Positions 1 through 18,921 are shown, numbered from the stretch's first letter. The stretch is 64,000 bases of DNA from Escherichia coli (GCF_046105845.1 NZ_CP151004.1), one strand, 5' to 3'. Program-made: numbers and translations. The notes: a model not told the origin generated them from the sequence alone.

Positions 1-1
1 C

Positions 2-1033: not shown

Positions 1034-1363
1034 ATGGAAACTACCAAGCCTTCATTCCAGGACGTACTGGAATTTGTTCGTCTGTTCCGTCGTAAGAACA
1101 AACTGCAACGTGAAATTCAGGACGTTGAGAAAAAGATCCGTGACAACCAGAAGCGCGTCCTGCTGCTGGACAACCTGAGCGATTACATCAAGCCGGGGAT
1201 GAGCGTTGAAGCAATCCAGGGCATCATCGCCAGCATGAAAGGTGACTATGAAGATCGCGTTGACGATTACATCATCAAAAATGCCGAGCTCTCCAAAGAA
1301 CGCCGCGATATCTCCAAAAAGCTGAAAGCTATGGGCGAAATGAAAAACGGCGAAGCGAAGTAA
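1034..1363 (+). CDS. yeeX: YeeX (DUF496 family) protein, 109 aa
   Basis: Translation from internal ATG begins [29 protein letters not shown], matching remembered YeeX; the supplied ORF has an upstream in-frame extension that is probably not used. Confidence 0.9.
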
Positions 1364-1376
1364 TTCCTGTTTTATT

Positions 1377-1405
1377 CAATGAGGGTTGCCCGGCAACCCT
1401 CATTG
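1377..1405. terminator. Hairpin terminator between convergent yeeX and pduV
   Basis: Inverted repeat aatgagggttgc...gcaaccctcatt directly after the yeeX stop, followed by a T-rich tract on the plus strand. Confidence 0.6.
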
Positions 1406-1463
1406 CTCATTGATTCTTTTCTGTGCATCACCGTCATCATTCTCATCTGAGAACCTGTCGAAA

Positions 1464-1907
1464 TTAGCGACAGCCTTCTTCTGTATGCAGCAAGGCTAAA
1501 AGTTCTGCAACTCCATTGTTATTAACCACACTGGTTACTAACACGTTGTGCGCTCCAGCTTCCCGTAACCAACATTTCACCAAAGATAGTTGTTCCATGT
1601 TGGCTAAATCTGCTTTGGTTACTACTCCAATGACCGGGCGATTCATTGACGAGGTAAAGCCTGGCGAAAAAGGTGACCACGGTGCGTCCGCATTAAGCAC
1701 CAGCGCGATAATGTCCGCTTCGCAGGCACTGACCAACAGTGCACTGTAGAGGCTGCGGTTTTCGAGGTATTCGCCTGGTGTATCAATGGTGGTCGGGGAC
1801 CAGACGATTGCCTGCGTTTTCTGATAATGAATATTTTCGCCACGCAGACATTGCGTGAGTGACGTTTTTCCGCACTGGCTGGGGCCGATGAGCATCATAC
1901 GTTGCAT
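1464..1907 (-). CDS. pduV: PduV, EutP/PduV family GTPase
   Basis: 147 aa; P-loop [10 protein letters not shown] near the N-terminus; last gene of the pdu array. Confidence 0.9.
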
Positions 1908-1911
1908 AACG

Positions 1912-2262
1912 TCAGGTTCGCGTAATGGGGCAGGCGGTAAAGCGCATCATTTCACCCAGCGTACGGGTAACCTGGCTAAGTGCATATTCGATCGCAGAAA
2001 CATCACCAGTCAGCACTACGGCACCGGTAAAACGATCAAGAAAACCGATCTCTACAGAGCCTGATTTTGTGGCGATATCACATGCGATGATAGATGCTTC
2101 GCTGGGGGTAATTGTAAGAATACCAATAGCGGAAATGGTGTCTGGTAAACCCAATTTCTTAAACAGATCCTTCCCTGGATTGGCGATGACATGTGCCAGC
2201 GTGACCTGCTTACCAGGGACATATTCCTGAATCATCCGTTCAGTTGTGTGCTGAGTTGTCAT
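1912..2262 (-). CDS. pduU: PduU microcompartment shell protein (circularly permuted BMC domain)
   Basis: Internal start gives about 116 aa beginning [33 protein letters not shown], matching PduU; the supplied ORF has a short upstream extension. Confidence 0.85.
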
Positions 2263-2816
2263 TATCCCTCCACCATCTGACGCCACATGGCTCCATGTGG
2301 ACGGGCAATCACTGACCGATAGACCAACAAACCTTTTTCCCCCGCACGCTCGCTGGCGACAGAGACCGCGTTATTAACATCTGAAATATCGCCAGCAACC
2401 ACCATGTAGCATTTACCACCAATGCCAAAAGCCATATGTACGCGAACGAGAATGACATTCGCAGCTTTGACAGCACAATCGGCAGCGTCAATGCAGGCGG
2501 CGACACCCCAGGTTTCGACTACGCCGACAGCCCGGTGCTGTTCAACATGGTTAAGTCCGCTGATTGCAGAAAGGAGGCTGGGATGAATATTCGGCAGGAC
2601 AAGACTGTCGACCAGCATTTCACCAGCAAGGGACGCTCCGCTGTTGATGGCCTGTTGCACCGCGCCCACATCGCCACCGAGCATCAGCAGAAATTTTCCG
2701 GGGCATAGCGTTTTGCTGACCAGTAACTCAACGTTGGCGCTTTTCAGCATGGCGTCGCCGGTTTCCATCCCTTTCGCGATACTGCTAAGTTCTAAAATAC
2801 CTACCGCTTTCGACAT
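2262..2816 (-). CDS. pduT: PduT microcompartment shell protein (tandem BMC domains)
   Basis: 184 aa beginning [32 protein letters not shown] and ending [13 protein letters not shown]; two BMC-like halves. Confidence 0.9.
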
Positions 2817-2818
2817 CG

Positions 2819-4162
2819 TTAACCTCTCACAAGCGTAATCGCGTTTTCTGTCACATCGCTGACCATGCCATCAATACTGGCATGAATGGGGGCACCTAAT
2901 GTGCCGTGTGGAATTTGACCTACATATTGCCCATGAACGACGCGATCGCCTTTTTGTACACACGCAATTGCGCTGGCACCGATGTGCTGGCGTAACAATA
3001 ACGTCACTTTTTCGGGTTGAGGCACCTGTTCAGACAATGGCGCATCCTGATACCACGGGATTAGGCCCAGTCTGGTTACCAGCCGTTTTACGGGAATCAG
3101 TCGATAATTTGCCATGGGATCAGCAGGATTTAAGGCACCTTCGTAGCGGAGATTTTGTGCGCGTAATTCCTGCTTAAGCAGACGGTTTATGCGCATTGGT
3201 GAAATTCCTACCGGACAGGCGACGCTGGCGCAGACGTTGCACTCCGAACAGGTGAGCGCCGTCAGTAACAGTTGTGGCGTAGCGAGCTGTTGGTAGTTAA
3301 CCGCACGTACTAATAAATGGGGGGCCAGTTCGTGACCGACTAAATGACGTGGGCAGAGATCGGTACACAAGCGGCATTGCTCACAAACAGTTTTCGCGAC
3401 GGCAAGTACGCTGCGGTCATTCTGCATTCGACGTTGGATCAGTGAATGAGAGTTGGGTAAAACCAGCAAGCCGCCAGTGGTTTTGCTGACTGGTGTGTCG
3501 AGCGATGTGATCAAACTTCCCATCATCGGCCCGCCATTGATAAAACCAGGAGCATCCACTGTTGCGCCGCCCGCCAGCGCCAGGACTTCACGTAAAGACA
3601 TGCCGATGGGGACGGTTACCGTTATTGGTTTCGCCACTGCACCATTAACGGTGAGTGTGCGGCGCGTCACTGGATACTGTTGCTCGACGGCTCTGGCAAT
3701 ATTAAGTACGGTTTGAACATTATTGACCACCACACCGACGCTAACGGGTAATGCAGCGGGTGGAACGCGGCGACCAGTTGCCATCCAGATGGTCAGCACT
3801 TCGTCTCCTGCGGGGTAAACATCGGGAAAAATATGCAGGCGGATATCCGGTGGTAATAGGGGTGTGAGTGCGTTTATTGCCAGTTGATATTTCTCTTTCA
3901 GCGCGATGATTCCGCTACTGGCCCCGGTGGCTTTCATCGCATAGTGAACACCGCGAAGCAGGCGGCTGGCTTGCTGCGCCATTAACTGTTGATCCACTTT
4001 CAACATGGGTTCGCATTCCGCCGCATTCACCAGGAACGTGTCAACACGCGCTTGTAGCTTAATATGGGTTGGGAAACCTGCGCCGCCAGCACCCACGACA
4101 CCTGCTGCCTGTACTCGCTCGCGGATGGTCTGGTCGTCGCAGGAGGTTAACTCGACGTTCAT
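2819..4162 (-). CDS. pduS: PduS cobalamin reductase (Fe-S flavoprotein)
   Basis: 447 aa; glycine-rich [13 protein letters not shown] motif and cysteine clusters [12 protein letters not shown] / [13 protein letters not shown] typical of the RnfC-like PduS. Confidence 0.9.
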
Positions 4163-5271
4163 AACAACTCCTCGAGCAGTTCTGCAATAGCGGTGGCATC
4201 AGCCGCACGCGGGTTGGTACGCAACGTTGCATCCGCCAGTGCCGCCTGAACCATATCTGGTATGCGTATTGACCATTCTGCTTTTTTTTCTTTCAGCACA
4301 TTGGTAAGAGTCGGTAGCTTACAGGTTGTTTTAAGCTGTTCAATATGTTGAATAAGTGCATTCAGGCTGGCGGTGTCATTGGCGTTGTCCGGGCATAAAT
4401 GGCACGTTTTCGCCAGCCGGGCGTAGCGTTTGGCAGCGCGCGGATCGCCAGCATTAAAGCGGATAACTGCCGTGAGCAGGAGCGCATTCGCCAGGCCGTG
4501 TGGCAGATGAAACTGTCCGCCGAGTTGATGAGCAATTGCATGGTTTAAACCGAGTCCGGCCTGGCTAAAGGCCATTCCTGCAAGCGTCGATGCATTATGC
4601 ATTTTGCCACGGGTGGCAAGACAATTGCCTTTTTTCACTGCAGTGGGCAGGTATTGAAAAACAATTTGCACGGCTTTTTCGACCAGTGCATCCGTGAAGT
4701 CGCTGGCGCGAGGAGAAACATAAGCTTCAAGCGCATGGGTTAAAACATCCATCCCGGTATTGGCCGTTATCGCCGGTGGCACGCTGACGATCAGAGATGG
4801 ATCAAGGATCGCGATATCCGGATAAAGTGCATTATCGAAAAGGGGATATTTAATCCCTTTCTCAGGATCGCTGATGACACAAGCACTGGTCACTTCGGAA
4901 CCGGTACCGCTGGTGGTAGGAATGGCTACGCAGGTTTCAATTTCAATGCCACACTGGCGACCGAACCAGACAATCGCTTTTGCGGCGTCCAGGGCAGAAC
5001 CGCCGCCAAAACCGATAACCACATCCGGGCGTAAAGTCTGCATTTGCGCAATGCCTTTCACCACGGTCTGGATAGTTGGGTCGGGCGTTATTTCGCTAAA
5101 AATACTAAGACGATTACTGTCGGGCAGCGCCTGATGCAACGTGTCAATAAGTGGTGAGCGTGCCAGAAAGGCATCGCAAATAATCCAGATGTGTCTATGA
5201 GAGAAACGGCTAAGTACCTTGAGACTTCCTGGTCCGCTGTATAAACGCGTCTGCAGTGAAAAAGTATTCAT
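4159..5271 (-). CDS. pduQ: PduQ 1-propanol dehydrogenase (iron-containing alcohol dehydrogenase family)
   Basis: 370 aa; GGGS motif and histidine-rich metal site typical of Fe-ADH; position between pduP and pduS. Confidence 0.9.
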   Translation of the reverse strand: MNTFSLQTRLYSGPGSLKVLSRFSHRHIWIICDAFLARSPLIDTLHQALPDSNRLSIFSEITPDPTIQTVVKGIAQMQTLRPDVVIGFGGGSALDAAKAIVWFGRQCGIEIETCVAIPTTSGTGSEVTSACVISDPEKGIKYPLFDNALYPDIAILDPSLIVSVPPAITANTGMDVLTHALEAYVSPRASDFTDALVEKAVQIVFQYLPTAVKKGNCLATRGKMHNASTLAGMAFSQAGLGLNHAIAHQLGGQFHLPHGLANALLLTAVIRFNAGDPRAAKRYARLAKTCHLCPDNANDTASLNALIQHIEQLKTTCKLPTLTNVLKEKKAEWSIRIPDMVQAALADATLRTNPRAADATAIAELLEELL

Positions 5272-5281
5272 TTCCGTTTCT

Positions 5282-6667
5282 CTAGCGAATTGAAAAGCCG
5301 CTGGTTAACACGCAGCGTCGTGAGCGGGCAAAAGTCCGTGCTGACGTTGTCCCTTCTCCGGTCGGTGTTGCAATGGTAAAGGTCGTAAAGCCTTCGCCGC
5401 CGACGCCAATACCCGCCCAGGAGGGGCCGTTTTTGACAAAGATTGAGGTTTGCATAACGCGTGCGGCAAGGTTGAGCCGTGAGACGTTCTGCGAGTGCAT
5501 AATTGCCGTGTGGTGCAAGCCGTCTTCCACTTTCAGCGCCAGGGTGAGAGCGCTATCAAAATCGTTGACCTTCACAATGGGCAGCATTGGCATCAGTTGT
5601 TCACAAGTAACCCAACTATCATTGGCGTCGACAACAGCAATCAGTAGGCGCGGCGCTTTTGCGGGCAAAGGGAGGCCTGCCGCTTCCAGCAAGGCTGATG
5701 GGCTTTTCCCAACCAGTTTTTTGTTGGCGCTACCGTCTGGCAGGCAAATTGCACGCAATTTCTCCGTTTGCTCATAGTTAAGAAGAAGCGCGCCAAAACT
5801 TTGCATCTGCTGAATTAAATACTCTGCCACTGATGCTACGACAATCAGGCTTTTTTCAGCGATACACGGCAGGTTGTAATCAAATGAAGCGCCGTTGATG
5901 ATATCTTCGGCGGCTTTCACAATATCCGCCGTTTCATCGACGATACACGGAGGGTTACCCGCTCCGGCACCAATCACTTTCTTGCCACTTTTCATTCCCA
6001 TGGCGACGATCCCCGGACCGCCGGTAATCGCCAGAACGCTGATTTTAGGGTGCGCCATCATCTGTTCGGTAGCAGCAAAGGTCGGTTCAGATACGGTAAC
6101 GATCAGGTTATGAATGCCACTACAGCGAAACGCGATGTCTTCGATTATGGTAATCAGTTTTAACGAAACGTTTTTGGCTCCCGGGTGTGGACTGAAGTAG
6201 ACGCTATTACCTGCTGCCAGCATGCTGATGCTGTTGTTAATGATGGTTTCCGTGGGGTTGGTGCTTGGCGTGACCGAGCCAATCACCCCAAACGGAGAGT
6301 ATTCAAACAAAACCATGCCACCATCACCGGTCAGTGCTGTGGTGGTTAAATCTTCAATTCCAGGCGTGTTATCAAGTGCCGCTTTGTTTTTTAGGTACTT
6401 ATCTTCTTTATTTCCCATCCCCGTTTCTTTGGCGCTTTCTTCTGCCAGTTCGGTCAGGCGGGGCATTAATTCTTCGCGAATGGCGCTGATAATGGCGCTA
6501 CGGGTTTTAAGCGGGCACTGTTGAAAGCGTAAAAAGGCCTGGTGTGCTGCGCAGACCGCTTCATCAACAGTCTGGAAAATAGCGTTTCTTTGCGCTCGTT
6601 GCGTAGCGGGGGCAAGCTGCTCACGCAGAATATTGCGGATCAGTGTTTCTAATTCAGAGTTATTCAT
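5282..6667 (-). CDS. pduP: PduP CoA-acylating propionaldehyde dehydrogenase
   Basis: 461 aa; begins MNNSELETLIRNILREQL and ends SARTFARSRRCVLTSGFSIR, matching the aldehyde dehydrogenase PduP family. Confidence 0.9.
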   Translation of the reverse strand: MNNSELETLIRNILREQLAPATQRAQRNAIFQTVDEAVCAAHQAFLRFQQCPLKTRSAIISAIREELMPRLTELAEESAKETGMGNKEDKYLKNKAALDNTPGIEDLTTTALTGDGGMVLFEYSPFGVIGSVTPSTNPTETIINNSISMLAAGNSVYFSPHPGAKNVSLKLITIIEDIAFRCSGIHNLIVTVSEPTFAATEQMMAHPKISVLAITGGPGIVAMGMKSGKKVIGAGAGNPPCIVDETADIVKAAEDIINGASFDYNLPCIAEKSLIVVASVAEYLIQQMQSFGALLLNYEQTEKLRAICLPDGSANKKLVGKSPSALLEAAGLPLPAKAPRLLIAVVDANDSWVTCEQLMPMLPIVKVNDFDSALTLALKVEDGLHHTAIMHSQNVSRLNLAARVMQTSIFVKNGPSWAGIGVGGEGFTTFTIATPTGEGTTSARTFARSRRCVLTSGFSIR

Positions 6668-7671
6668 TGGTTTACTCCCACGTTAATTGCCGCCATTGCG
6701 CTTTGGGCAATATCCATGTCTTGTTCAACGCTACCACCGCTGATGCCAAGCCCCCCGAGCAATATTCCGTCACGCCAGAGGGGGAAGCCGCCACCAAAGG
6801 TGACGACTTTGCCTTGCATATGGCTTTCGAGCCCATAAAGCGGCGCGCCGGGTTGCACGGTATCAGCAAGCTTGTGGGTTGCTGTTTTCATCGCCACGGC
6901 GGTCCAGGCTTTTTTCGGTGCCAGTTCACTGCTGACCAACAGGGCATCAGGCATCCGCCAGGTAACACTTTCTGTTCCGTTGGCATCAACAATGCTGATG
7001 ACAACGGGAATATGCAGTTCATCCGCGCGCATTGCCGCACTACGAATGAGCTGGTGAAGATCCTGAAATGTGAGCGGCATTGTGCGTTCCTTCAATGCTG
7101 GTGTGTGGTTGGCTTCGTGATAACGTTTTGTGATTTCCTGAATCATCAGGTTTTGATGAGCAACGTTGTCTTCCACTCGGGCGAGGGCATACAGGCAATC
7201 GGAAAGTCGGTTGATATAGTGCAGCAAAACATTCCGGACGTTGGTTTCCGTTGTCAGTTCAACCAGACGTCTTTCAGCCCGTCGAGCCACTGTGCGGGCG
7301 AAATGCATGTGGCTTGCGGCTTCAGATCGACCAGGCAGAATGAAGCTGTGAACTGGGGGGACGGCGTTCATTGCGCTATCGATCGCGTTTTCCAGCGCAG
7401 CAATTTCTTCCGTACTGATGTAACGCTGCTTCGCTGACGGCTGTTCGCTTTCACTCGCGAGTTCGGCGCTAAACCAAAATATCTGTTGTTGAATGGCTTC
7501 CAGTAAGATGCGATGGCTTTCGATGGCGGTGGCGCAATAACACAGACTGAGTGTCGCGTTCAGTTCATCCAGCGTGCCATAGGTTTCGACACGTAGATGA
7601 GTTTTGCTGACGCGCTGTCCGGTAAATAAAGACGTACTTCCTGAATCACCTGTTCGGGTATAAATTGCCAT
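6664..7671 (-). CDS. pduO: PduO ATP:cob(I)alamin adenosyltransferase (with C-terminal DUF336-like domain)
   Basis: 335 aa beginning MAIYTRTGDSGSTSLFTGQRVSK, the characteristic PduO-type adenosyltransferase N-terminus. Confidence 0.9.
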   Translation of the reverse strand: MAIYTRTGDSGSTSLFTGQRVSKTHLRVETYGTLDELNATLSLCYCATAIESHRILLEAIQQQIFWFSAELASESEQPSAKQRYISTEEIAALENAIDSAMNAVPPVHSFILPGRSEAASHMHFARTVARRAERRLVELTTETNVRNVLLHYINRLSDCLYALARVEDNVAHQNLMIQEITKRYHEANHTPALKERTMPLTFQDLHQLIRSAAMRADELHIPVVISIVDANGTESVTWRMPDALLVSSELAPKKAWTAVAMKTATHKLADTVQPGAPLYGLESHMQGKVVTFGGGFPLWRDGILLGGLGISGGSVEQDMDIAQSAMAAINVGVNQ

Positions 7672-7682
7672 CTTTCAGCTCC

Positions 7683-7958
7683 TTAGCGCGAAAGCGTATC
7701 GACAATGCCGACCACTGCCAGGTCGATGGCTTCGTTAGGGCCGGAAAACACATGTCTGGCGCTGGAACCACTGCTGAGGAGTACCAACTCACCAACGCCT
7801 GCGCCGACGGAATCAACGGCAACTTCGTCGCCAGTTAATGGCGTGAGAGGCAGTTCGCCGTCAGCACTGACCCGGCGAACCAGCAGCAGTTTTTTCCCGA
7901 TCAGAGAAGGTGATTTTTGCGTGGATACTACCGCGCCAGTGACTCGAGCCAGATGCAT
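7683..7958 (-). CDS. pduN: PduN microcompartment vertex protein (EutN/CcmL family)
   Basis: 91 aa; [17 protein letters not shown] start typical of EutN/PduN pentamer proteins. Confidence 0.85.
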
Positions 7959-7961
7959 AGG

Positions 7962-8453
7962 TTACTCCTGCCTGATTAACTGAATATTTCGGGTAATTGC
8001 CGCTTCACGAGCCAGTGCGGTCACACAACATTTCCGCTGTAACACCAATATTCCCGAGCTTAACTGTGCGATATCGACATAACTTAAAAGTCGATCATGA
8101 TGTAGGTAGATCGGTTGCCCTTGTTCGTCGCACCAGCTTAGCGGTAGACGGGCGAGAGTCTTCAATTCAATGGCGTTCAGGAAATGACGCTGCAACGCCA
8201 ATTGAATGTGCATTCCCCAGGCTAACGCTTCGTGTATCTGGATTGCTGCTCGATCTGACGTTTCGTTCTCCGCAAGTTGTCGCAGCAGCGGCAGATCGAC
8301 ATATCGGATTTGTAATGACGCATACTGATGAACGCTCTCTTGAACGCTGGCGTCTCGCAGTTGAAAAACAGTCAGCACGAGTGTTTTTCCCGCACGTTGT
8401 TTAAGGCGAAAAACCACTTCGTCAACAATACGTTGCATCAGTATGTTATTCAT
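7962..8453 (-). CDS. pduM: PduM microcompartment-associated protein
   Basis: 163 aa ORF in the conserved pduL-pduM-pduN position; no enzymatic motifs. Confidence 0.8.
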   Translation of the reverse strand: MNNILMQRIVDEVVFRLKQRAGKTLVLTVFQLRDASVQESVHQYASLQIRYVDLPLLRQLAENETSDRAAIQIHEALAWGMHIQLALQRHFLNAIELKTLARLPLSWCDEQGQPIYLHHDRLLSYVDIAQLSSGILVLQRKCCVTALAREAAITRNIQLIRQE

Positions 8454-9082
8454 GGCATTGACACCAGTGTGGCAAAAACGTCAGGGCTATCAGCCCCTGC
8501 GGCGTTGGCCTCATCGGTATCAATATGCATTTCAAGACGCATATCCGGAGAGACGCGAACAGCGACGTTTTCGAATATCAGTCGTCGCTCATCACCTTCA
8601 ATGGCAACCGCCACTTTTTCGCCATGCGTAACGCCATAAATCAGGGCATCCAGCGGAGACATATGAATATGCCGTTGCGCGACAATGACGCCAGATGTGA
8701 TCTCCAGTTCCGCAAATGGACTTATCAAACGAATCCCCGGAGTGCCGCTGAGATCGCCTGACATGCGTAGCGGGGCGGTGATCCCTAACGTTCTGGCGTC
8801 CGTCCGGGAAATTTCCACCTGACTTGCATTGCGTAGCGGCCCCAACAAGCGAACGTTGTGCAATTTACCTTTTGGTCCCTCCAGCGTAACAACCTGTTCA
8901 GCAGCGAATTGGCCAGGTTGCATTAACGGCTTTTTCTCGCTAATCGGTTGTTCAGGAAAAAGACGCAAATAATCCGCTGTTGAAAGATGAATATGACGAC
9001 TGGAAACACCCAGAGGGATAGGGCGCTCACGCATCTCATCCAGAATCTGGCTCACTGTTTCCTGCAAGGTTTGTTTATCCAC
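8450..9082 (-). CDS. pduL: PduL phosphate propanoyltransferase
   Basis: 210 aa; position and size match PduL; 4-nt overlap with pduM. Confidence 0.85.
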   Translation of the reverse strand: MDKQTLQETVSQILDEMRERPIPLGVSSRHIHLSTADYLRLFPEQPISEKKPLMQPGQFAAEQVVTLEGPKGKLHNVRLLGPLRNASQVEISRTDARTLGITAPLRMSGDLSGTPGIRLISPFAELEITSGVIVAQRHIHMSPLDALIYGVTHGEKVAVAIEGDERRLIFENVAVRVSPDMRLEMHIDTDEANAAGADSPDVFATLVSMP

Positions 9083-9084
9083 TG

Positions 9085-9507
9085 CTACTCCCCTCGCTTA
9101 TTGGTGTGCAGGCAAAGTGAGCGGGGCTCACCTTTTTGCCGCTGACATGCCGGGTCAAGACACAAATTACAACTGATAATCTCTGAGGTGACGGTTGTTG
9201 CTGGTGTTTCGCTTGTTTCAACCGTCCCAGTCAATGCTTCAGTTGTGTGGGGCAGAATGCCGTCTCCCGGGCGGGCAATTACTTTGTGTGCGACAAGGCT
9301 ATTTCGCTGTCCGGCGAAACTGGCTCCCGTCGCGATCGCCGCATTAACCGAGGCGACGTCACCGGTGATTTTGATGAGCGTCCAGCCTGAGCCATTGGTC
9401 TTCTCAAGGCCAACCAGCATGATAGACGCGGCTTTTGCCATAGCGTCTGCGCAACTGATGGCGAGAGCCAGACCACTGACTTCAAGTAATCCCAGTGATT
9501 GCTTCAC
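9085..9507 (-). CDS. pduK: PduK microcompartment shell protein with C-terminal cysteine motif
   Basis: 140 aa; N-terminal BMC domain (LGLLEVSGLALAISCADAMAKAA) and C-terminal CNLCLDPAC motif. Confidence 0.85.
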   Translation of the reverse strand: MKQSLGLLEVSGLALAISCADAMAKAASIMLVGLEKTNGSGWTLIKITGDVASVNAAIATGASFAGQRNSLVAHKVIARPGDGILPHTTEALTGTVETSETPATTVTSEIISCNLCLDPACQRQKGEPRSLCLHTNKRGE

Positions 9508-9530
9508 GCTGTGCTCCTTAGCAAATGGGG

Positions 9531-9806
9531 TTATGCCGATTTAGGTAAAATAGCCTCAACATCACTGTGTGGGCGCGGGATGACATGGCAGGATTTCACT
9601 TCGCCAACTGCGCTTGCCGCAGCGCTCCCCGCATCCACGGCGGCCTTTACTGCACCAACATCACCGCGGACCATCACCGTAATCAGACCCGAACCAATCT
9701 TTTCATAGCCAACCAGTTGCACGTTGGCGGATTTAACCATGGCATCTGCAGCTTCAATTGCGCCAACTAACCCTTTTGTTTCAACCAGTCCTAGTGCGTT
9801 GTTCAT
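9531..9806 (-). CDS. pduJ: PduJ microcompartment shell protein (BMC domain)
   Basis: 91 aa; [41 protein letters not shown] is a canonical BMC hexamer sequence. Confidence 0.9.
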
Positions 9807-9825
9807 ACTGCTTTTCTCCTGTGGA

Positions 9826-10176
9826 TTATGAGTGGAGTTCCCGGAAGGGAATCCCTTTTACCAGGCGGGCAGCGTTAGAGCCAATGCTGCGCCGGGCATG
9901 GTTATCTTGTTGATACATCAGCGTAAACAGTGGCGCTGATGCCGGTAAGTTTTTGTAATGCACAATCAGTTTTTCCTGATCGCAGGCAATGCCAACCAAC
10001 AGGGGAGATTGACGAGCAGCCAGCCAGGCGCTATCGATAACTTCACCTGACGGAATGTGTTGAATGCGAAAGGGAATACCTTCCTCTTCAATGCCAAGAA
10101 GCACCTCATCCCATATAGTGATGCAGTTACCGATCTCCATGACGACGATGGCTGGTGCTCGCTCTTTACTTTCCAT
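9826..10176 (-). CDS. pduH: PduH diol dehydratase reactivase small subunit
   Basis: 116 aa following pduG with 11-nt overlap; conserved position and size. Confidence 0.85.
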
Positions 10177-11998
10177 GAATCGACTCCTTGTGCCAGGCGA
10201 TGAGTAGCCCAGTAGCTACCGCGTTGCGCGGACCTTCGCTACCACGGATATTCCCCCGTCCGGCGACCAATCGATAATGCGCCAATGCATCGGTGACTAA
10301 CTGCGGTACTTCGAAATCCAGCGAAGAACCGCCCACCAGAACGACGAACGGAATATCGCGAATATTTCCTGCAGGGCTTACCTGACGTAGCGCGCGCAGG
10401 GCATTGGTTACGAAGACACGCTCTTTCGCACTGCGACGGACAGCGCGTACTTTTTCCAGCGTCAAATCACCGGGAATAGGCACCAGTTCGTCGGGTTTCA
10501 CTACACAGACGCGGGCAAATACATGGGGGGATAGGGGAGTAGGGAAGAACTGAACGCTGCCATCTTCATGGCGTAAGTGGAACAGGCTTTCTACTTTTGC
10601 CAACGGGTACTTTTTGATTTCTTCTGCCAGATAACGATCATTTAAGCCCAGCTCACGAACGATAATCATCGTTACCATGTCGCCCGCACCCGCAAGGTGA
10701 GTGGCAACAATTTCCCCTTTCTGATTGATGATGGAGGCATCGGTAGAGCCTGCACCTAAGTCCAGAATTGCCAGTGGACGTGTGGTTCCAGGGGTAGTCA
10801 AGGCCCCCTGAATGGCGGCTTCTGCTTCTGCGCCTCCTACCTGAACATCAACATGCAGTTTTTGCTTAATTTCACTGGCGATCATTGCCATTTGCAGACG
10901 GTCGGATTTCACCATAGAGGCAATACCCACAGCCTGTTCCAGTGAAAATTCACCTGCCAGACCGCCGGTTACGCTGACGGGGACAGAGGTATCTATCGCC
11001 AGCAAATCCTGAATAAAAATTTCGTTGCTGGGTTTGTTGGTCAGTTCCGCCATGGTCTGGCGAACATGTTCCAGCATTCCGCCGATGTTGGTGCCTGGTT
11101 CTCCCGTCACGTTTTCCAGTTTTGGGCACTCACCGACCGCTTTCATAATGGCATCGGCACCAGCAGCTACATCAACGCGCGTTGTGCGCCCGGCAGAAAG
11201 CAGTTCGATATTTCCGGCGGGTATCGAACGGGCTTTAACGTCGCCAGAAGGCGTTTTCACTACCACTGCTGAACGGTTGCCGATTAGCGCCCGCGCGACA
11301 GGAACAATATTTTTAGTCTCTTCAGCATTGAGGGCGAAAACGGTGGCAATCCCATACGGGTTAGATAGGGTTTCGATAACTTTCCCGGGAACGGCAACTT
11401 CAATTGCAGCCAGCATGCCGAGCGGAATACGATCGATGTAGAGGACTTCATCAACAATAGGTAGAGGAATTTCCAGGCGGTTATTGACCAGTACGCCATC
11501 GTCGCGTTGCAGAATAACGCCAGTCAGCTGATATCCGGCGCGTACGGAGGCGTTTATCATCGTCGCGATATCGGCAAAATCAAATGCCGATGACACCACC
11601 AGGATGTAAGGTGTGTCCGCCGGGCGTGTTAATAACTCTTGCGGAGTGATGGTGAGCCCTACGCCCAGCCCCACTCCGCCCGGAGTTTTCGGGTTGTGAC
11701 CGATCATGGTTGATTCGGTGATGATGGTTTCAGTGATGGTTTCCATCGCCACATCACCAATGACCGGAGTTGCTTCGTTGATACGAATAAGCGAAATATC
11801 GCTAACATTGATGCCGACTTTTTTCGTTGCCTGTGCGAGCGCCTCCTGAATACCATGGACGTTACGCAACGTACCTTTAATTCCGGTGGTTTCCGCCAGG
11901 GCGCTACTTACGAACGACAACTCTCCAGTTGCACTGAGCGTTGCCAGCGCAATCTCTGTTGATGAGTTACCGATATCAATGCCTGCTATATATCGCAT
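10166..11998 (-). CDS. pduG: PduG diol dehydratase reactivase large subunit
   Basis: 610 aa beginning MRYIAGIDIGNSSTEIALA, the actin-like ATPase fold of DhaF/PduG reactivases. Confidence 0.9.
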   Translation of the reverse strand: MRYIAGIDIGNSSTEIALATLSATGELSFVSSALAETTGIKGTLRNVHGIQEALAQATKKVGINVSDISLIRINEATPVIGDVAMETITETIITESTMIGHNPKTPGGVGLGVGLTITPQELLTRPADTPYILVVSSAFDFADIATMINASVRAGYQLTGVILQRDDGVLVNNRLEIPLPIVDEVLYIDRIPLGMLAAIEVAVPGKVIETLSNPYGIATVFALNAEETKNIVPVARALIGNRSAVVVKTPSGDVKARSIPAGNIELLSAGRTTRVDVAAGADAIMKAVGECPKLENVTGEPGTNIGGMLEHVRQTMAELTNKPSNEIFIQDLLAIDTSVPVSVTGGLAGEFSLEQAVGIASMVKSDRLQMAMIASEIKQKLHVDVQVGGAEAEAAIQGALTTPGTTRPLAILDLGAGSTDASIINQKGEIVATHLAGAGDMVTMIIVRELGLNDRYLAEEIKKYPLAKVESLFHLRHEDGSVQFFPTPLSPHVFARVCVVKPDELVPIPGDLTLEKVRAVRRSAKERVFVTNALRALRQVSPAGNIRDIPFVVLVGGSSLDFEVPQLVTDALAHYRLVAGRGNIRGSEGPRNAVATGLLIAWHKESIHGK

Positions 11999-12007
11999 AG
12001 TTCGTCC

Positions 12008-12526
12008 TTAATCGTCGCCTTTCAGTTTTTTGCGCTCGACATAAAGCTCCGCAGCTTCACGGACAAATGCAGCACAAATTTTGGCCTGATAACGCCGTTC
12101 AAGATCGTCAGCAATGGCAATGAGTTCTTGCTTAGTCGAACGATAAGGGCGTAACGCATTGTAGATTTCGAGGATACGATCATCCGGTACTGAGGTAAGC
12201 TCAGCGGCGCGTTCAAAATTCATCGCCAGACGATCGCGACCAGCATCTCTGGCAATCGCAGCCTGAATACGCAATGTTTCAGGGGTAATGCGCATATCCT
12301 GGGCGGTGACGTTATCGCTTAGCACATTTTCCAGAGTGAAATCGTCGAGCGTTTTATTGGTTGCTGTTTTAACCCATTCCGGATGTTTATTTGCCAGCGG
12401 ATAATCCGTCACTTTGGCGCTCTGTATTGACGCGCTGGGGACCGCAGAAACAGGAGCTGCATCCTGTAAACTGTTCATGCGATTCAACACGTCCCTGACC
12501 ATCGACTCAATTGCATCGGTATTCAT
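12008..12526 (-). CDS. pduE: PduE diol dehydratase small (gamma) subunit
   Basis: 172 aa; position after pduD. Confidence 0.9.
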   Translation of the reverse strand: MNTDAIESMVRDVLNRMNSLQDAAPVSAVPSASIQSAKVTDYPLANKHPEWVKTATNKTLDDFTLENVLSDNVTAQDMRITPETLRIQAAIARDAGRDRLAMNFERAAELTSVPDDRILEIYNALRPYRSTKQELIAIADDLERRYQAKICAAFVREAAELYVERKKLKGDD

Positions 12527-12540
12527 GAAGATTTCCTTTG

Positions 12541-13209
12541 TTAAAACGTCACGCGCAGTTCTTGCGGTTTTTTGCCAGTGACCACGTACTTCGTCTCTTT
12601 GATATGCAAAATGGCAGATTTAGCCTGGTATTTCGGCCGCGCCATTTGATCGTTGAGGGTCGGCACCGGTTGTGGAGACTCACGCTTTGCATAACGCGCG
12701 GCGTTTTTGCCAATCTGACGATAAGTTTCCAGCGTCAACAAAGGCGCTTGTGGGAATAGTTCCAGGTTAGACAAGGGAGGAAGACCCTGCTGGTGGATAA
12801 CCGTTGTGCCTTTCGACTGAATACCGATAGCAATACCTGAACCACTAAGACGATCGCCTTCGACTGCTACGAATGCGACATCGGACGATTTAAAGCAGCG
12901 AATCACACGGGCTTTAATGCCTTCTTCTTCAATACCAGCAATCACTTCGCGCAAGATGTTTTTATGCGGAATACCGATGATATTGACGGTTTGCGCCAGG
13001 CCGAACGCCGGGCCTACAGCAATAATGACTTCATCTTGCTGAGTGCCTTGTTGGGCTTCGCCAATTTCGGTCAGAAAATTTCCGGTATCTGGCGCGGAAG
13101 AGGCAGTTGCAGAGACAGGTGCGCGAAATGAAACGGGCTTGTCGCTGGTTTGCATTTCTGCCAGCACGTCTTCGATAATCTGACGCAGTAATTTTTCGTT
13201 AATTTCCAT
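12541..13209 (-). CDS. pduD: PduD diol dehydratase medium (beta) subunit
   Basis: 222 aa; position between pduC and pduE. Confidence 0.9.
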
Positions 13210-13218
13210 GTCTCACCC

Positions 13219-14883
13219 TTAGTCAATTTCGTTGGGATCAAGTGCACCGGGAATATTTTTGATCTCTTCCCAGCGTTCCCCTTGCAGGCGGTAACCTGTA
13301 GCCGGTCCGGCGTAATCATTGACGTCATTGACCGCAGAGAGCACTTGTCCGTCATCGACGATGATGGCTGAGGTATGGAGATAATCGCCGGTCAGTTTTG
13401 CTTTTTGCATGTTGAGCATGTCCTGGGCGACATCGGTAAAACCGCCTTGCGCCAGGGCTTTCACCACTTCCAGGCTGTTCCGGTTTTTATTGATAATCTC
13501 CTGGGCGAACTTGATGTCTTCCACAATATTGCGCTCAGGCATATCTTTTGAACCGTGGGCATAGGTTGCCGCTTCGACTTCTTCATCGGTAATAGGCGGT
13601 AGTCCCATACCGGCAAAGACAGCCTGTAAAGCGCGAGCGGCTTTATTGCGGATAGCGATAACATCTTCTTCGCGTACTGGTCGCAGGCCGCCATCAACCT
13701 TCAGGTCACGCTGAATGACGTTGTAATCATCGAAGTCTTCAGCATCTTCGTTTGAACCAGCAAACATGTTGTCATAGTTCGGCACAGCGGAAAAACCGGA
13801 AGAGATAAAGTCGGTACCTGGCAGAAACTGCATCAGGAAACGTGCGGTACGGCGCATATCCGAGTGGGTAAAGGTCTGGTCATTACTGGAGGCGCATTCC
13901 AGATCCAGCGATGAGCAAATTAAGTTTTCCGCTAATACTGCGCGGATGCCTGATGGCACAGCTGATGGAACACCGATGCAGCTTACCGAACCATTCTGCA
14001 GGCCCTGAACGCCTGCGGCTTTGGTGATGTAAATGCAACGAGCCTCGAGATAAAGCATTGATTTGCCTTCCGCGTAACCCATCTGTACTTCAGAGCCGGA
14101 GCCGGAAGTAAAGCGCATTTTTAAGCCGCGAGACGCATAGGATGACGCGAGAAATCCTTTTGACCACGGGGTGTCATCGCCATCGGTGAAAACAGGTTCT
14201 GTACCATAGACAGAAATTGTTTCGGCGTAACAGGTGTGGCCTAACATACCGAGTTTCAGTTCGGTGGCTTCTTCCAGTGAACACTGGGTCAAGACGCCCG
14301 GACGTCCCACCTGTGAGCCGACCAGCAGGGCGATGGCGTTGAACGGGGCATAGCGAGCAACGGCAACGGTGGTTTCCTGTTCATCAAACCCGCGCCATGC
14401 GCCTTCAGCTGCGTCGGCGGCAATTTGTACCGGGTTATCTTTGACGTTGGTGACGTGAGCCTGTTGTGATGGTGTTCGACGGGCGCGCATTTTCTGCATC
14501 GCCATCATCATCTCTACCACGTTCATCAGCGAAACAACTTCGACGATTTTTGCAGGCGTCATTGCTGTGGTAAGGGGAACGATATTGCTACGTTTGACAT
14601 TTGGATCGCACAACATATTGGCAAGTTTTACCGAATCCATCGCGATGACTTCTTCTGCGCGCGCGAGATTGATGCCGTAGCGGGCGATAAAGTGGTCGAT
14701 CAGGTCAAACTGGCTGGCGGGTTTTCCATCCAGTTCGGTAACGACGCCGTTAACAATTTTGATTGATGGTTTAGGATCGTTCGGGCTTTCCATCGCAATG
14801 AAGCCTTCTTCAATCCACTCTTTAACGAAACCGTCCTGGTTGACCGGGCGTTTTGCCAGTGCTTCAAATCTTTTCGATCTCAT
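13219..14883 (-). CDS. pduC: PduC B12-dependent diol dehydratase large (alpha) subunit
   Basis: 554 aa beginning MRSKRFEALAKRPVNQDGFVKEWIEEGFIAMESPNDPKPSIKIVNG, matching the diol/glycerol dehydratase alpha family. Confidence 0.92.
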   Translation of the reverse strand: MRSKRFEALAKRPVNQDGFVKEWIEEGFIAMESPNDPKPSIKIVNGVVTELDGKPASQFDLIDHFIARYGINLARAEEVIAMDSVKLANMLCDPNVKRSNIVPLTTAMTPAKIVEVVSLMNVVEMMMAMQKMRARRTPSQQAHVTNVKDNPVQIAADAAEGAWRGFDEQETTVAVARYAPFNAIALLVGSQVGRPGVLTQCSLEEATELKLGMLGHTCYAETISVYGTEPVFTDGDDTPWSKGFLASSYASRGLKMRFTSGSGSEVQMGYAEGKSMLYLEARCIYITKAAGVQGLQNGSVSCIGVPSAVPSGIRAVLAENLICSSLDLECASSNDQTFTHSDMRRTARFLMQFLPGTDFISSGFSAVPNYDNMFAGSNEDAEDFDDYNVIQRDLKVDGGLRPVREEDVIAIRNKAARALQAVFAGMGLPPITDEEVEAATYAHGSKDMPERNIVEDIKFAQEIINKNRNSLEVVKALAQGGFTDVAQDMLNMQKAKLTGDYLHTSAIIVDDGQVLSAVNDVNDYAGPATGYRLQGERWEEIKNIPGALDPNEID

Positions 14884-14901
14884 AAATCTGCCTCAGAGAA
14901 T

Positions 14902-15714
14902 TCAGATGTAGGAAGGGCGATCGTTTTTCGGTGTATCGCCGAGAGTCGAAAGCACGGTTTTACCGATTTCGCGTGCAGAGATGACCGCCTGGCGGACTGC
15001 GCCGGAGTCACCCGAGATAATCAGAATGACTTCATTGCTGTAGCTGGTGCCTTGAGCGGGGGAGCTGTATGCCACAACATCCACATTGGCGGACTTCAGC
15101 GCGGTGTCGGCCATCAGAACACCCACAGCAGCCGGAGCGCCGACAATAACGCCGCAAGCCCGTCCCAATGGTGCACCAAACGCTTTTTCCAGTGCATAGC
15201 TGGCGCGGGCGGTATATTGCAGCTCAAGATGTCCGGCTTCGTTGGCATAGACATCGCCAAAGGTCCGATCGAGTTCTTTCAGGGCGACTTCAATACCGCG
15301 TTTCACGTCGGAAACATCGTTGCCACCTAAGAGGATCAATGAGCCATGTCCGGCACCGCCTTTAGTATCCCGAGGAAGTTCAATGCTAATAACTTCAGTG
15401 TTGGTGGCTTTTACCGCTTCATCAGCGGCCATAATGTGTGGCCCTGCGCCAATACGCGCACCCAGAATGCCAATGGAACGATAGCGTTTTTCAAGTTTCA
15501 TTGCGTCCAACAGGGCGCTATCAACGTTCGCAATGACCAGACCTACAGTGTCGCCAATAGCGGTGCCAACAAATTCTGTTAACGTGCAGCTTTTTTCTGC
15601 CATAGCCGTCTCTCGTATTTGATGAGTGGTTTTCGGGAGAACCTCATGCTCTGGCGTCGCTACGCGAGCGATGACCTGCGCCATGATCTGTTTGACCAGT
15701 TCATTGCTGCTCAT
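14902..15714 (-). CDS. pduB: PduB microcompartment shell protein (tandem BMC, trimer type)
   Basis: 270 aa; position between pduA and pduC. Confidence 0.9.
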
Positions 15715-15995
15715 GGGTTAATTCCCTTTGGTAAGATTTTTTCGACATCGGTATGTGGGCGGGGAATAATGTGCACGGCTTTTACTTCGCCGACGTTACG
15801 CGCAGCTGCGGCACCTGCGTCTGTTGCCGCTTTTACCGCCCCGACATCACCACGAACGATGACGGTCACCAGCCCGGAACCTATTTTTTCGTAGCCGACC
15901 AGCAAAACATTTGCCGACTTCACCATGGCGTCTGCGGCCTCTATGGCGGCAGTTAAGCCTTTGGTTTCTACCATTCCTAACGCTTCTTGTTGCAT
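15711..15995 (-). CDS. pduA: PduA major microcompartment shell protein
   Basis: 94 aa; [57 protein letters not shown] is a canonical BMC domain; first gene of the minus-strand operon. Confidence 0.92.
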
Positions 15996-16506
15996 AAAGA
16001 CCTCGCCTGGATTTTTTTGACGATATGACTATAAAAAAAAACGAGGAAAAAGAATGGCTGACTTAATCGGCTAATCAGAAAAATTAATAGAGAACAAATA
16101 TTATAAAATTGCTTTTATGAACTATATGTTGTTAATTTATTAGTTGTTTTGTGGATATTTCAATGTGAATTAATTGCGTTGGCTAGTGAGTTTAATCGCG
16201 AGTAATATTTCGTTGAGTTTGGTTCGAGGAAGGAACTGTGATATTTGTTTCAATTTTATTATGTCATGATGGCAATTTTTTACTGTAAAAGTTTGGTGGA
16301 AATTATTACTTTCAACACTGATTAACGCTGTGTTGCATGATTCGGCAATGACAATAATTTGTTATGTTAGCACGATTTTTACACGAGTCTGTCATGCATG
16401 TTAGCAATATTTTCTGCAGAGCAATTTTTTATAGTTGCGCTCGATATACACAACAATCAGCGCATAGTTGGCTGATAAAGAAAAACTCCGTAAAGAAGGT
16501 GTCACT
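15996..16506. promoter_or_regulatory. Divergent AT-rich control region between pduA (minus) and pduF-pocR (plus)
   Basis: About 510 bp without coding potential, strongly AT-rich, between two divergently oriented gene starts; corresponds to the PocR-controlled pdu promoter region in Salmonella. Confidence 0.6.
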
Positions 16507-17316
16507 ATGAATGATTCACTCAAGGCGCAATGCGTTGCCGAGTTTTTGGGCACCGGACTGTTCCTCTTTTTTGGCATTGGTTGTTTGTGCGCCCTGAAAC
16601 TTGCCGGGGCAAGTCTGGGACTGTGGGAAATTTGTATCATTTGGGGGTTAGGGATTTCGCTTGCTGTTTACCTTACGGCAGGTATTTCCGGCGCTCATCT
16701 CAACCCGGCTGTTACCATTGCTCTGTGGCTGTTTGCCTCTTTCCCTGCCCGTAAAGTGCTGCCATTTTGTGTGGCGCAATTAGCGGGTGCCTTTGGTGGT
16801 GCGGTTCTGGCATATTTTCTCTACAGCAGTTTGTTTACCGATTTTGAATCTGCTCACAATATGGTGCGTGGTAGTGCAGAAAGTTTACAACTCGCCAGTA
16901 TCTTCAGTACTTATCCGGCAGCGGCGATTAATGTATGGCAAGCTGCGTTGGTCGAAGTGGTCATAACGTCCATGTTAATGGGGTTGATTATGGCGTTGAC
17001 CGATGACGGTAATGGCGTACCCAAAGGACCGCTTGCGCCTTTACTTATTGGTATTCTGGTTGCTGTTATTGGTGCTTCTACCGGACCATTAACCGGTTTT
17101 GCCATGAATCCAGCGCGTGATTTTGGACCTAAAATTTTCACCTGGCTTGCGGGTTGGGGGGAAATTGCGATGACTGGTGGACGCAATATTCCTTATTTCA
17201 TTGTACCCATTATTGCACCGATCATTGGCGCATGTGTTGGTGCGGCGATTTATCGCTATCTCATTGCAAAGAATTTACCTGTCAATAGTGTAACGCCTAA
17301 AGAAATTAGCGAATAA
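16507..17316 (+). CDS. pduF: PduF propanediol diffusion facilitator (MIP/aquaglyceroporin family)
   Basis: Internal ATG gives MNDSLKAQCVAEFLGTGLFLFFG; NPA motifs (HLNPAV and MNPARD) present; the supplied ORF carries an upstream extension. Confidence 0.9.
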   Translation: MNDSLKAQCVAEFLGTGLFLFFGIGCLCALKLAGASLGLWEICIIWGLGISLAVYLTAGISGAHLNPAVTIALWLFASFPARKVLPFCVAQLAGAFGGAVLAYFLYSSLFTDFESAHNMVRGSAESLQLASIFSTYPAAAINVWQAALVEVVITSMLMGLIMALTDDGNGVPKGPLAPLLIGILVAVIGASTGPLTGFAMNPARDFGPKIFTWLAGWGEIAMTGGRNIPYFIVPIIAPIIGACVGAAIYRYLIAKNLPVNSVTPKEISE

Positions 17317-17518
17317 CGAAATAATCTGGCAGTTATAAACGTTTATTTTTTTACTGTTTGTGATCTGCTTTCCGAACTTATTAAAAAGTCTCCCGCTTCA
17401 CGGAGGCTTTTGTTATTGTCCTTTGTGCTTCTCGTCAGTAAATCATCAGGGATGATGTGAAGATTAAATGTAAAACAATTGTTTTGCTATAACAATAAAT
17501 TAACTGGGAGGTTTTATC

Positions 17519-18433
17519 ATGATTTCTGCGGCGACACTTAATTCAGAACTCATTAATAAAATCGCGCAGGATTTTGCGCAGGCGACCAGCCTTGCGGTTG
17601 TCGTGGTCAATATTCACGGCGATGAAATTTCCGAGCTGTTTAACTTCACTCCATTTTGTCAGATGATGCGGCAACACCCTCAGCTAAGCACTCGATGTCG
17701 CATGAGCGATCGTTGTGGGGGCTTGGAAGCCTCTAAATCCGATCAGCCTTGTATTTATCGCTGTCATGCCGGATTAACCGATTTCTCTATTCCACTGGTA
17801 ATCGCCGGGCATTTAGTCGGTTTTGTATTGTGCGGGCAAGTTCGTCTGCGTAATGATGATGTCGATTTGGTCGATATTCTGAATGTCGATGATTGCTGGC
17901 AGGCAGATCCCGAATTACTTAATGAATTCCGCAAAGTTCCTGAGATGGATTACTCAAGAGTTATGGCCTCTGCTGATTTGTTGAAGTTGATTGTGGAAAA
18001 TTGCCTCAAAAAACAACTCAATTTTGTGGTTATTAAAGAGAACAAATCTCAGTCAGATTCGGTGCGCCAGACTCGTGCGCCTAATCCCCACGACAATAAA
18101 ATGAAAAAAGCTTTACGCTATATTGATGCGCATTTATCAGACGATTTGCGTCTGGAAGATGTCGCCTCACACGTTTATCTAAGCCCTTATTATTTCAGTA
18201 AGTTATTTAAGAAATACCATGGAATCGGGTTTAATGCGTGGGTAAACCAACAACGGATGGCCAGCGCTCGTGAGTTACTGTGCCATAGTGACTGGAGCAT
18301 CGCCAGCATTGCGCGTAATTTAGGTTTTTCACAAACAAGTTATTTTTGCAAAGTTTTCCGTCAGACTTATCAGGTTACGCCGCAGGTGTATCGACAGCAA
18401 GTGAGTGATAATGCGGCGATGGAAACGGTATAG
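17519..18433 (+). CDS. pocR: PocR, AraC-family activator of pdu/cob genes
   Basis: 304 aa; C-terminal AraC-type HTH region (LRYIDAHLSDDLRLEDVASHVYLSPYYFSKLFK); position after pduF. Confidence 0.9.
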   Translation: MISAATLNSELINKIAQDFAQATSLAVVVVNIHGDEISELFNFTPFCQMMRQHPQLSTRCRMSDRCGGLEASKSDQPCIYRCHAGLTDFSIPLVIAGHLVGFVLCGQVRLRNDDVDLVDILNVDDCWQADPELLNEFRKVPEMDYSRVMASADLLKLIVENCLKKQLNFVVIKENKSQSDSVRQTRAPNPHDNKMKKALRYIDAHLSDDLRLEDVASHVYLSPYYFSKLFKKYHGIGFNAWVNQQRMASARELLCHSDWSIASIARNLGFSQTSYFCKVFRQTYQVTPQVYRQQVSDNAAMETV

Positions 18434-18534
18434 AGTAAATGCCCCAAAAAAAGAGGACGGTTTAAATAAACTCTGCAATGAATAATTAACGTTATTTACC
18501 TGTTATGGGAAAAGTGAAATCAGCTCATAACATA

Positions 18535-18790: not shown

Positions 18791-18921
18791 CGGCATCATT
18801 TAGTTCTTTCATCGCAGTGCCGACAGGCACCAGGGCTGCACTTAAGGTGTGGCAATCTTGTTTCATGGCTCATCAACCAGACCGCCATTACAGGAAACTA
18901 AGTGGAGGGCGAGAGGCATGA
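18787..18921 (+). pseudogene. 44-codon mini-ORF, possible decayed 5' end of cbiA
   Basis: Starts MAA directly after the riboswitch, as cbiA does in Salmonella, but diverges after a few residues; stop TGA overlaps the next ATG (ATGA). Confidence 0.3.

Follow-up and report, generated by a model that had tools for sequence, protein, structure and literature searches.

Positions 1,464 to 18,433 of a 64,000-nucleotide (nt) stretch of Escherichia coli DNA (GCF_046105845.1, NZ_CP151004.1; the whole stretch is referred to as the window, and coordinates are counted from its first letter) hold a pdu locus for the catabolism of 1,2-propanediol. Nineteen contiguous genes occupy the minus strand from 1464 to 15995 in the order pduA, B, C, D, E, G, H, J, K, L, M, N, O, P, Q, S, T, U and V, each an open reading frame (ORF) without an internal stop, and the divergent plus-strand genes pduF and pocR, also intact, carry the locus to 18433. 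This is the gene set that a preliminary description of the same DNA had proposed, and its report of gene overlaps of 1 to 11 nt was borne out as well: six are seen (T/U 1 nt, Q/S 4, O/P 4, L/M 4, G/H 11 and A/B 4), and the remaining intergenic gaps in the operon are all 23 nt or shorter when counted from annotated starts. Gene identities were obtained from NCBIfam profile searches together with the annotation of CB6837, a near-identical and co-linear E. coli genome from which the start codons were taken and whose annotated ORF lengths are the same as those found here. The features of the locus and its flanks are listed below (aa, amino acids; BMC, bacterial microcompartment; sRNA, small RNA; CoA, coenzyme A).

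1-862, plus: 3' part of yeeA (FUSC family), conserved flank on the left; yeeA stands at the homologous position in CB6837
1034-1363, plus: tmaR (yeeX), convergent with pduV; NF040881 TmaR 187 bits, NF003844 197 bits, CB6837 annotation
1377-1405, unstranded: hairpin in the tmaR-pduV spacer, perfect 13-bp stem and 3-nt loop
1464-1907, minus: pduV, 147 aa, last gene of the operon; TIGR02528 EutP/PduV 183 bits
1912-2262, minus: pduU, 116 aa, circularly permuted BMC shell protein; EutS/PduU NF012012 134 bits, annotation
2262-2816, minus: pduT, 184 aa, tandem-BMC shell protein; annotation, TIGR02526 154 bits (below the 250-bit cutoff)
2819-4162, minus: pduS, 447 aa, RnfC-like Fe-S flavoprotein (cobalamin reductase); TIGR01945 256 bits, position and length in CB6837
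4159-5271, minus: pduQ, 370 aa, iron-type 1-propanol dehydrogenase; matches to the iron-type alcohol dehydrogenase family, annotation
5282-6667, minus: pduP, 461 aa, CoA-acylating propionaldehyde dehydrogenase; NF011927 718 bits, full length
6664-7671, minus: pduO, 335 aa, two-domain ATP:cob(I)alamin adenosyltransferase; TIGR00636 164 bits, annotation
7683-7958, minus: pduN, 91 aa, pentameric vertex protein; EutN/CcmL matches all below cutoffs, annotated as EutN/CcmL family
7962-8453, minus: pduM, 163 aa; NF011957 243 bits
8450-9082, minus: pduL, 210 aa, phosphate propanoyltransferase, which makes propionyl-phosphate; NF011652 255 bits
9085-9507, minus: pduK, 140 aa, BMC shell protein with a C-terminal Cys motif; BMC domain matches
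9531-9806, minus: pduJ, 91 aa, major hexameric shell protein; EutM/PduA-type BMC 118 bits (below the 133-bit cutoff), 100% identical to CB6837 PduJ
9826-10176, minus: pduH, 116 aa, reactivase small subunit; annotation (reactivase beta/small subunit family), 99.1% identity to CB6837, weak 23-bit match to the diol dehydratase medium subunit
10166-11998, minus: pduG, 610 aa, diol dehydratase reactivase large subunit; TIGR04491 959 bits
12008-12526, minus: pduE, 172 aa, diol dehydratase small subunit; NF011971 358 bits
12541-13209, minus: pduD, 222 aa, diol dehydratase medium subunit; NF011616 393 bits
13219-14883, minus: pduC, 554 aa, B12-dependent diol dehydratase large subunit; NF011979 1071 bits
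14902-15714, minus: pduB, 270 aa, tandem-BMC trimeric shell protein; NF011944 474 bits
15711-15995, minus: pduA, 94 aa, hexameric shell protein, first gene of the operon; BMC 125 bits (below the 133-bit cutoff), annotation
15996-16506, unstranded: putative divergent pduA/pduF control region, 511 nt, low G+C (0.41-0.42 in the covering 1-kb windows)
16507-17316, plus: pduF, 269 aa, MIP-family propanediol facilitator; TIGR00861 225 bits, annotated start
17375-17458, minus: STnc230-like sRNA match between pduF and pocR; Rfam RF02075 74.8 bits (gathering score 50)
17519-18433, plus: pocR, 304 aa, AraC-family activator; NF047788 PocR 554 bits
18525-18699, plus: cobalamin riboswitch; Rfam RF00174 109.4 bits, full model, annotated in CB6837
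18918-19355, plus: CbiG-N-like ORF, 145 aa; NF004463 positions 1-125 of 351, E = 1e-18, 68 bits against a 546-bit cutoff
19489-20034, plus: cobU, first gene of cobUST (cobinamide salvage), right flank; NF004469 246 bits

Every functional part of a Pdu system is represented among these genes. The three subunits of the B12-dependent diol dehydratase, PduCDE, match their models at full length and above cutoff. Shell proteins are indicated by BMC-domain matches in PduA, PduJ, PduK, PduT, PduU and PduB and by EutN/CcmL matches in PduN, and the aldehyde-processing core comprises an acylating aldehyde dehydrogenase (PduP), a phosphotransacylase (PduL) and an alcohol dehydrogenase (PduQ). Cofactor maintenance is covered by the reactivase PduGH (PduH by annotation), the adenosyltransferase PduO and the reductase PduS, and a regulator and a facilitator are encoded by the divergent pocR and pduF. 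PduT, PduQ, PduN, PduK, PduJ, PduA and PduH match at the level of the family, under the model cutoffs, and take their names from the CB6837 annotation.

The window is co-linear with CB6837 over 20.1 kb, with the tmaR junction on one side and the riboswitch, cbiG relic and cobUST on the other, as is typical of the 19-gene pduA-V locus of Escherichia, in which a spacer of ~100-120 nt with a hairpin separates pduV from the convergent tmaR/yeeX. The loci of adherent-invasive E. coli (AIEC) and commensal strains (LF82, CUMT8, ZvL2, CB6837) have the same gene order, gene lengths and both flanks, and the gene sizes published for LF82 match the window base for base where the published table is correct (for example, pduV 443 and pduU 350; PMC6379400). 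Among the listed complete genomes that cover all of positions 1-20100, DNA identity to the window ranges from 97.6 to 98.8%, with CB6837 closest at 98.8%. The differences from these loci are allelic only, the proteins most diverged from CB6837 being PduV (95.2%) and PduT (96.7%). We conclude with high confidence that this is a native and ordinary Escherichia-type locus for a B12-dependent, 1,2-propanediol catabolic microcompartment, and the data hold nothing that contradicts this. The feature is real, ordinary and already known, having been annotated in hundreds of genomes and studied experimentally.

Three limits apply to this assignment. No complete RefSeq E. coli genome exceeds 98.8% identity to the window in the pdu region, and the DNA appears to come from a sparsely sampled E. 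coli lineage. The presence of ackA, tdcD, prpBCDE and btuB in the source strain is assumed from species-wide frequencies, the DNA analyzed covering 64 kb. Finally, a simple terminator scan returned no intrinsic-terminator call for the hairpin at 1377-1405, which is discussed below.

Selection, function and predicted pathway

The pdu genes are under purifying selection. Compared with CB6837, the 19 operon genes carry 116 synonymous and 52 nonsynonymous differences, giving a ratio of nonsynonymous to synonymous rates (dN/dS) of 0.14, and the corresponding values are 0.05 for pduF and 0.02 for pocR. The Cys motif of PduK (CNLCLDPAC...C) is conserved. We considered whether PduK, at 140 aa, might be truncated relative to the 158-aa protein of a second pdu locus in E. 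coli strain 48 (see below), and rejected this: the linker is shorter by 18 residues and the Cys motif is intact.

These observations bear on the possibility that the locus is an inactive remnant heading for loss, with lesions that do not appear as stops or frameshifts; the preliminary description had itself named such lesions as what would overturn its claim of intactness. The locus has been lost from 88% of E. coli, the adjacent cbi operon has already decayed to a relic, and PduV (95.2%) and PduT (96.7%) are more diverged from CB6837 than the other Pdu proteins, all of which could be read as signs of decay. However, all 21 genes are intact, dN/dS is low throughout, and the PduK motif is kept, whereas the neighboring cbiG relic drifts fast, with 68-74% identity between species. 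We therefore consider an inactive remnant very unlikely.

Work on closely related E. coli loci points the same way. The whole pdu operon of LF82 is expressed and induced (PMC6379400), and a pduC deletion mutant of E. coli CUMT8 does not grow on 1,2-propanediol (PMC9220930). By analogy with these loci, the locus in the window is predicted to form a microcompartment and to permit growth on 1,2-propanediol with cobalamin, with indirect support from the two studies (PMC6379400; PMC9220930). The pdu genes have been reported in ~50% of AIEC strains vs 20% of non-AIEC strains (PMC9220930). They are enriched in adherent-invasive strains linked to Crohn's disease, and permit the use of propanediol derived from fucose and rhamnose in the gut.

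If the system operates as in Salmonella, PocR would switch on the divergent pduF and pduA-V promoters, and PduF would let 1,2-propanediol into the cell. A shell is predicted to be built from PduA, PduB, PduJ, PduK, PduT and PduU with the vertex protein PduN, together with PduM, and PduCDE inside this shell would convert propanediol to propionaldehyde. The aldehyde may then be oxidized to propionyl-CoA by PduP or reduced to 1-propanol by PduQ, with PduL leading on to propionyl-phosphate, while PduGH, PduO and PduS would maintain active adenosyl-B12. Exported propionyl-phosphate could yield propionate and ATP through the core paralogues AckA and/or TdcD; alternatively, propionyl-CoA might enter the methylcitrate cycle.

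The two ends of the locus and the absence of pduW and pduX

The preliminary description had pduV running straight into a terminator on the yeeX side, without the pduW and pduX genes that end the Salmonella operon, and both statements hold. The stops of pduV and tmaR lie at 1464 and 1363, respectively, leaving a spacer of 100 nt whose sole feature is the hairpin, which thus comes directly after pduV. No ORF resembling pduW or pduX is present in 1364-1463, the interval named in advance as the place where such an ORF would speak against their absence, and a tblastn search of the whole 64-kb window with Citrobacter PduW and PduX recovered no relic of either gene (best E = 6). The spacer folds at -28.5 kcal/mol on the plus strand (z -4.15) and at -30.3 kcal/mol on the minus strand (z -3.79). 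Because a U-rich tail occurs on the plus strand only, the hairpin reads as the terminator of tmaR. A bidirectional terminator was rejected, the U-rich tail being solely on the tmaR side (the simple scan made no call). The hairpin is kept in E. whittamii, with paired compensatory changes in the stem, and largely kept in E. albertii.

To place this end in a wider context, we scanned bacteria, at one genome per species, with PduV peptide patterns. The 27 loci recovered belong to Escherichia and the Citrobacter group, with no Salmonella among them; Citrobacter thus serves as a proxy for the Salmonella operon, and statements on Salmonella rest on the cited papers. In all 21 loci of the Citrobacter group (Citrobacter, Pseudocitrobacter, Pluralibacter and two others) pduV is followed by pduW and then pduX, and in 19 of them, those whose downstream flank was recovered and retains these genes, yeeX-yeeA follows pduX. 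Citrobacter pduW encodes a 404-aa acetate/propionate kinase (828 bits to NF009063, cutoff 659) and pduX, directly after it, a 288-aa GHMP-type kinase. In contrast, pduV leads straight to yeeX-yeeA, without pduW or pduX, in E. albertii, E. whittamii and two E. coli species clusters, and in a fifth Escherichia (MOD1-EC7003) a pduV relic alone stands beside yeeX-yeeA. The operons of Salmonella LT2 and the Citrobacter freundii group share with the window the same 19 genes, their order and the divergent pduF-pocR pair, and Citrobacter also shares the yeeX-yeeA neighborhood. Unlike these 21-gene operons, the window lacks the terminal pduW (404 aa) and pduX (288 aa) and an adjacent cbiA-P.

PduV can be aligned between Escherichia and Citrobacter except for its last residues, EEGCR in the window vs EEPSCLTK in Citrobacter; therefore, the breakpoint lies at the pduV/pduW boundary. 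The spacer does not align with the pduX-yeeX spacer of Citrobacter, whose hairpin differs. A breakpoint at the very end of pduV, together with the lack of two terminal genes present in Citrobacter and Salmonella, might suggest that this strain or lineage alone underwent a recent deletion that left the operon impaired. Yet 639 E. coli genomes and further species of Escherichia have the same junction, and the spacer and hairpin are conserved across these species. The remaining genes are also under purifying selection, and E. coli carrying the pdu locus shows pduC-dependent growth on 1,2-propanediol (PMC9220930). A private deletion is accordingly extremely improbable. The absence of pduW and pduX is genus-wide and already noted: it is the rule for all native pdu loci of Escherichia and not a peculiarity of this strain.

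We surveyed 5,426 complete RefSeq E. coli genomes by sensitive blastn with the 2.2-kb pduW-pduX segment of Citrobacter. DNA resembling pduW/pduX was found in one of them, within a foreign island of strain 48, this being a nucleotide-level survey that very divergent copies would escape; by the same search, no genome has pduW-pduX at the native site. That E. coli lacks a PduW orthologue, with TdcD as the nearest homologue, had been recorded earlier (PMC3475010; PMC7360682), and the published pdu gene list of LF82 also ends at pduV (PMC6379400).

In Salmonella, PduW is the propionate kinase that converts propionyl-phosphate to propionate and ATP, and PduX is an L-threonine kinase that serves B12 synthesis. 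Citrobacter PduW shares 43% identity with each of AckA and TdcD, whose genes are near-universal in the surveyed genomes (ackA in 5,422, tdcD in 5,377). On this basis, AckA and/or TdcD could plausibly stand in for PduW, and the suggestion in the preliminary description that conversion of propionyl-phosphate would depend on another kinase is likewise plausible. Work by Palacios and colleagues from 2003 is said to have found acetate kinase able to substitute for PduW in Salmonella.

Fusions to green fluorescent protein place Salmonella PduW and PduX in the cytosol and PduV with the microcompartment (PMC7181861). Therefore, the Escherichia operon keeps all genes up to the last one whose product is microcompartment-associated, and every Salmonella gene with a microcompartment product is present in the window (PMC7181861). 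PduX provides threonine phosphate to the CobD/CbiB step (PMC6249242), and because the cbi operon is gone it would be without use or partner enzymes. The missing genes thus represent neither a gap in the pathway nor a new pathway: neither enzyme works within the microcompartment, core paralogues exist for PduW, and PduX belongs to a B12 pathway lost from E. coli.

The loss of that pathway is visible at the other end of the locus. The preliminary description had placed the locus between yeeX and cobU; the yeeX side stands, but cobU does not directly abut the locus, since a cobalamin riboswitch and the 145-aa ORF intervene after pocR. In the CB6837 annotation, too, pocR and cobU are separated by a cobalamin riboswitch and a small gene labeled hypothetical. 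The ORF covers the N-terminal third of CbiG only, and its homologues were found in Escherichia and Shigella only, at 68-74% identity between species. The riboswitch looks like the vestigial leader, and the ORF like a remnant, of the lost cbiA-P operon. Of a complete adjacent cbi-cob operon, the riboswitch, the CbiG-N relic and cobUST alone remain. With the cbi operon gone, de novo B12 synthesis is not possible, and B12 must be imported or salvaged via cobUST.

Distribution in E. coli and history of the site

In the same set of complete genomes, at least 80% of window positions 1-20100 is covered in 635 genomes (megablast, best identity 98.8%), and a contiguous tmaR-pduV-pduU-pduT junction is found in 639 (probe, window 1200-2300). 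The pdu locus therefore has a frequency of ~12%, or about 1 in 8 complete E. coli genomes, and ~88% are without it. With the same junction probe, at least tmaR and the 3' end of pduV are present in 5,417 of the 5,426. Among the listed pdu-negative genomes, all those with the full relic show a match ending at window position 1646 or 1640, and pduV bases 1464-1646 (the last 61 codons) are retained by nearly all pdu-negative E. coli, K-12 included. Because they keep the 3' end of pduV, the pdu-negative strains are deletion derivatives.

The preliminary description had noted that the locus occupies the position of the CP4-44 prophage remnant and IS5 in K-12, and the alignment agrees: CP4-44 replaces window 1647-19183. 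K-12 aligns to window 1-1646 and 19184-22829, with a 12.7-kb island containing IS5 and IS2 between the two segments, and homology to the window ends at the annotated right boundary of CP4-44 (2078748). The site is thus the same chromosomal site, in which the island replaces pdu and yoeF retains the end of pduV. K-12 yoeF (b4538) is a chimeric ORF whose 5' half belongs to the CP4-44 island and whose last 60 residues correspond to PduV 87-146 at 87% identity; it lies at 20576-20932 of the K-12 comparison stretch, corresponding to window 1464-1646. Strain 22AR0118 has a clean deletion that fuses window position 1640 to 19301 with a 7-bp overlap. An adjacent deletion mediated by an insertion sequence (IS) was considered for the K-12 junction and rejected: the island end beside the pduV relic holds an IS66-family fragment (yoeD), which ends ~70 nt short of the junction.

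The patchy distribution could also be taken to mean that the pdu locus is itself a recent genomic island in the source strain at the CP4-44 site. Only ~12% of complete E. coli carry it, the site is a hot spot for islands in other strains, and one strain did gain a foreign pdu island elsewhere in its chromosome. This is strain 48, a deer isolate with a 5.9-Mb genome, which has a separate foreign pdu operon (NZ_CP166879.1, 5244379-5260146). There, pduA-V are in the same order and encode proteins 55-98% identical to those of the window. The operon lies at another chromosomal site, with a pduW-like kinase after pduV and no pduX; remnants of IS66, IS21 and IS4 come next, along with a cdi locus. It is clearly a separate horizontal acquisition.

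For the locus in the window, most evidence runs counter to a recent island. The pduV 3' relic and tmaR retained in 5,417 of the 5,426 genomes mark the negatives as deletions, and E. albertii, E. whittamii and Citrobacter share the pdu-yeeX-yeeA synteny with the window. Relative to the Citrobacter group, PduV (66-78% identity) and the neighboring YeeA (71-79%) have diverged to about the same extent, with YeeA 96-99% identical to other Escherichia proteins; the similar divergence and the conserved site are consistent with vertical inheritance. In addition, the G+C content of the operon (0.49-0.55) is near that of the yeeA-tmaR flank (0.46-0.49), and no integrase, tRNA or IS flanks the pdu locus in the window. 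A recent island is largely refuted by these data, and we regard it as highly improbable.

For the native locus, we lean modestly towards a history in two steps. In the first, a single deletion of ~2.2 kb at the base of Escherichia, maybe after the loss of de novo B12 synthesis, would have removed pduW and pduX in the ancestor of the genus and left a natural minimal operon that ends at pduV. In the second, most E. coli, including K-12, would later have lost the segment from the interior of pduV (codon 87) to the cbiG relic just upstream of cobU; this deletion would account for the absence of the locus in ~88% of sequenced E. coli, with yoeF as its scar. A CP4-44-type island now fills the vacated site in most pdu-negative strains. 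Neither this two-step history nor the reading of yoeF as a pduV relic was set out in the literature searched, though genome annotation already labels the relic. As a by-product of the analysis, the locus would thus illustrate vertical inheritance, one genus-level trimming and then widespread loss marked by the yoeF relic.

Control region and remainder of the window

The 511-nt region between pduA and pduF is a candidate control region on the model of Salmonella. G+C content is 0.41-0.45 over 15501-18500, which includes this region, pduF and pocR, compared with 0.49-0.55 in the operon proper. The STnc230 match between pduF and pocR belongs to an enterobacterial sRNA family and overlaps a terminator-like hairpin at 17384-17411.

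Beyond the cob genes, an insertion of 9.5 kb with respect to K-12 (22830-32297) is bounded by ldtA and a tRNA-Asn gene. It encodes two phosphotransferase systems (galactitol-type IIABC), DeoR-type and sugar-binding regulators, an RpiB/LacAB isomerase, a ribulose-phosphate epimerase, a short-chain dehydrogenase/reductase-type oxidoreductase and a 6-phospho-3-hexuloisomerase. The 23.2 kb that include this insertion (22800-46000) are covered to at least 80% in 130 complete E. coli genomes, and are at most 97.9% identical to any complete RefSeq E. coli genome. On the minus strand, 42983-51670 forms a very long ORF (2,895 aa when read from a TTG codon), whose product carries the name Ig-like domain-containing protein in the annotation of relatives; it is probably a YeeJ-type inverse autotransporter, intact here and annotated as incomplete in strain TB06052. 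Four equal-scoring tRNA matches lie at 32355, 34763, 36584 and 51911, the first three annotated as tRNA-Asn in relatives; a fifth tRNA lies at 52975-53061, and rseX at 62019-62108.

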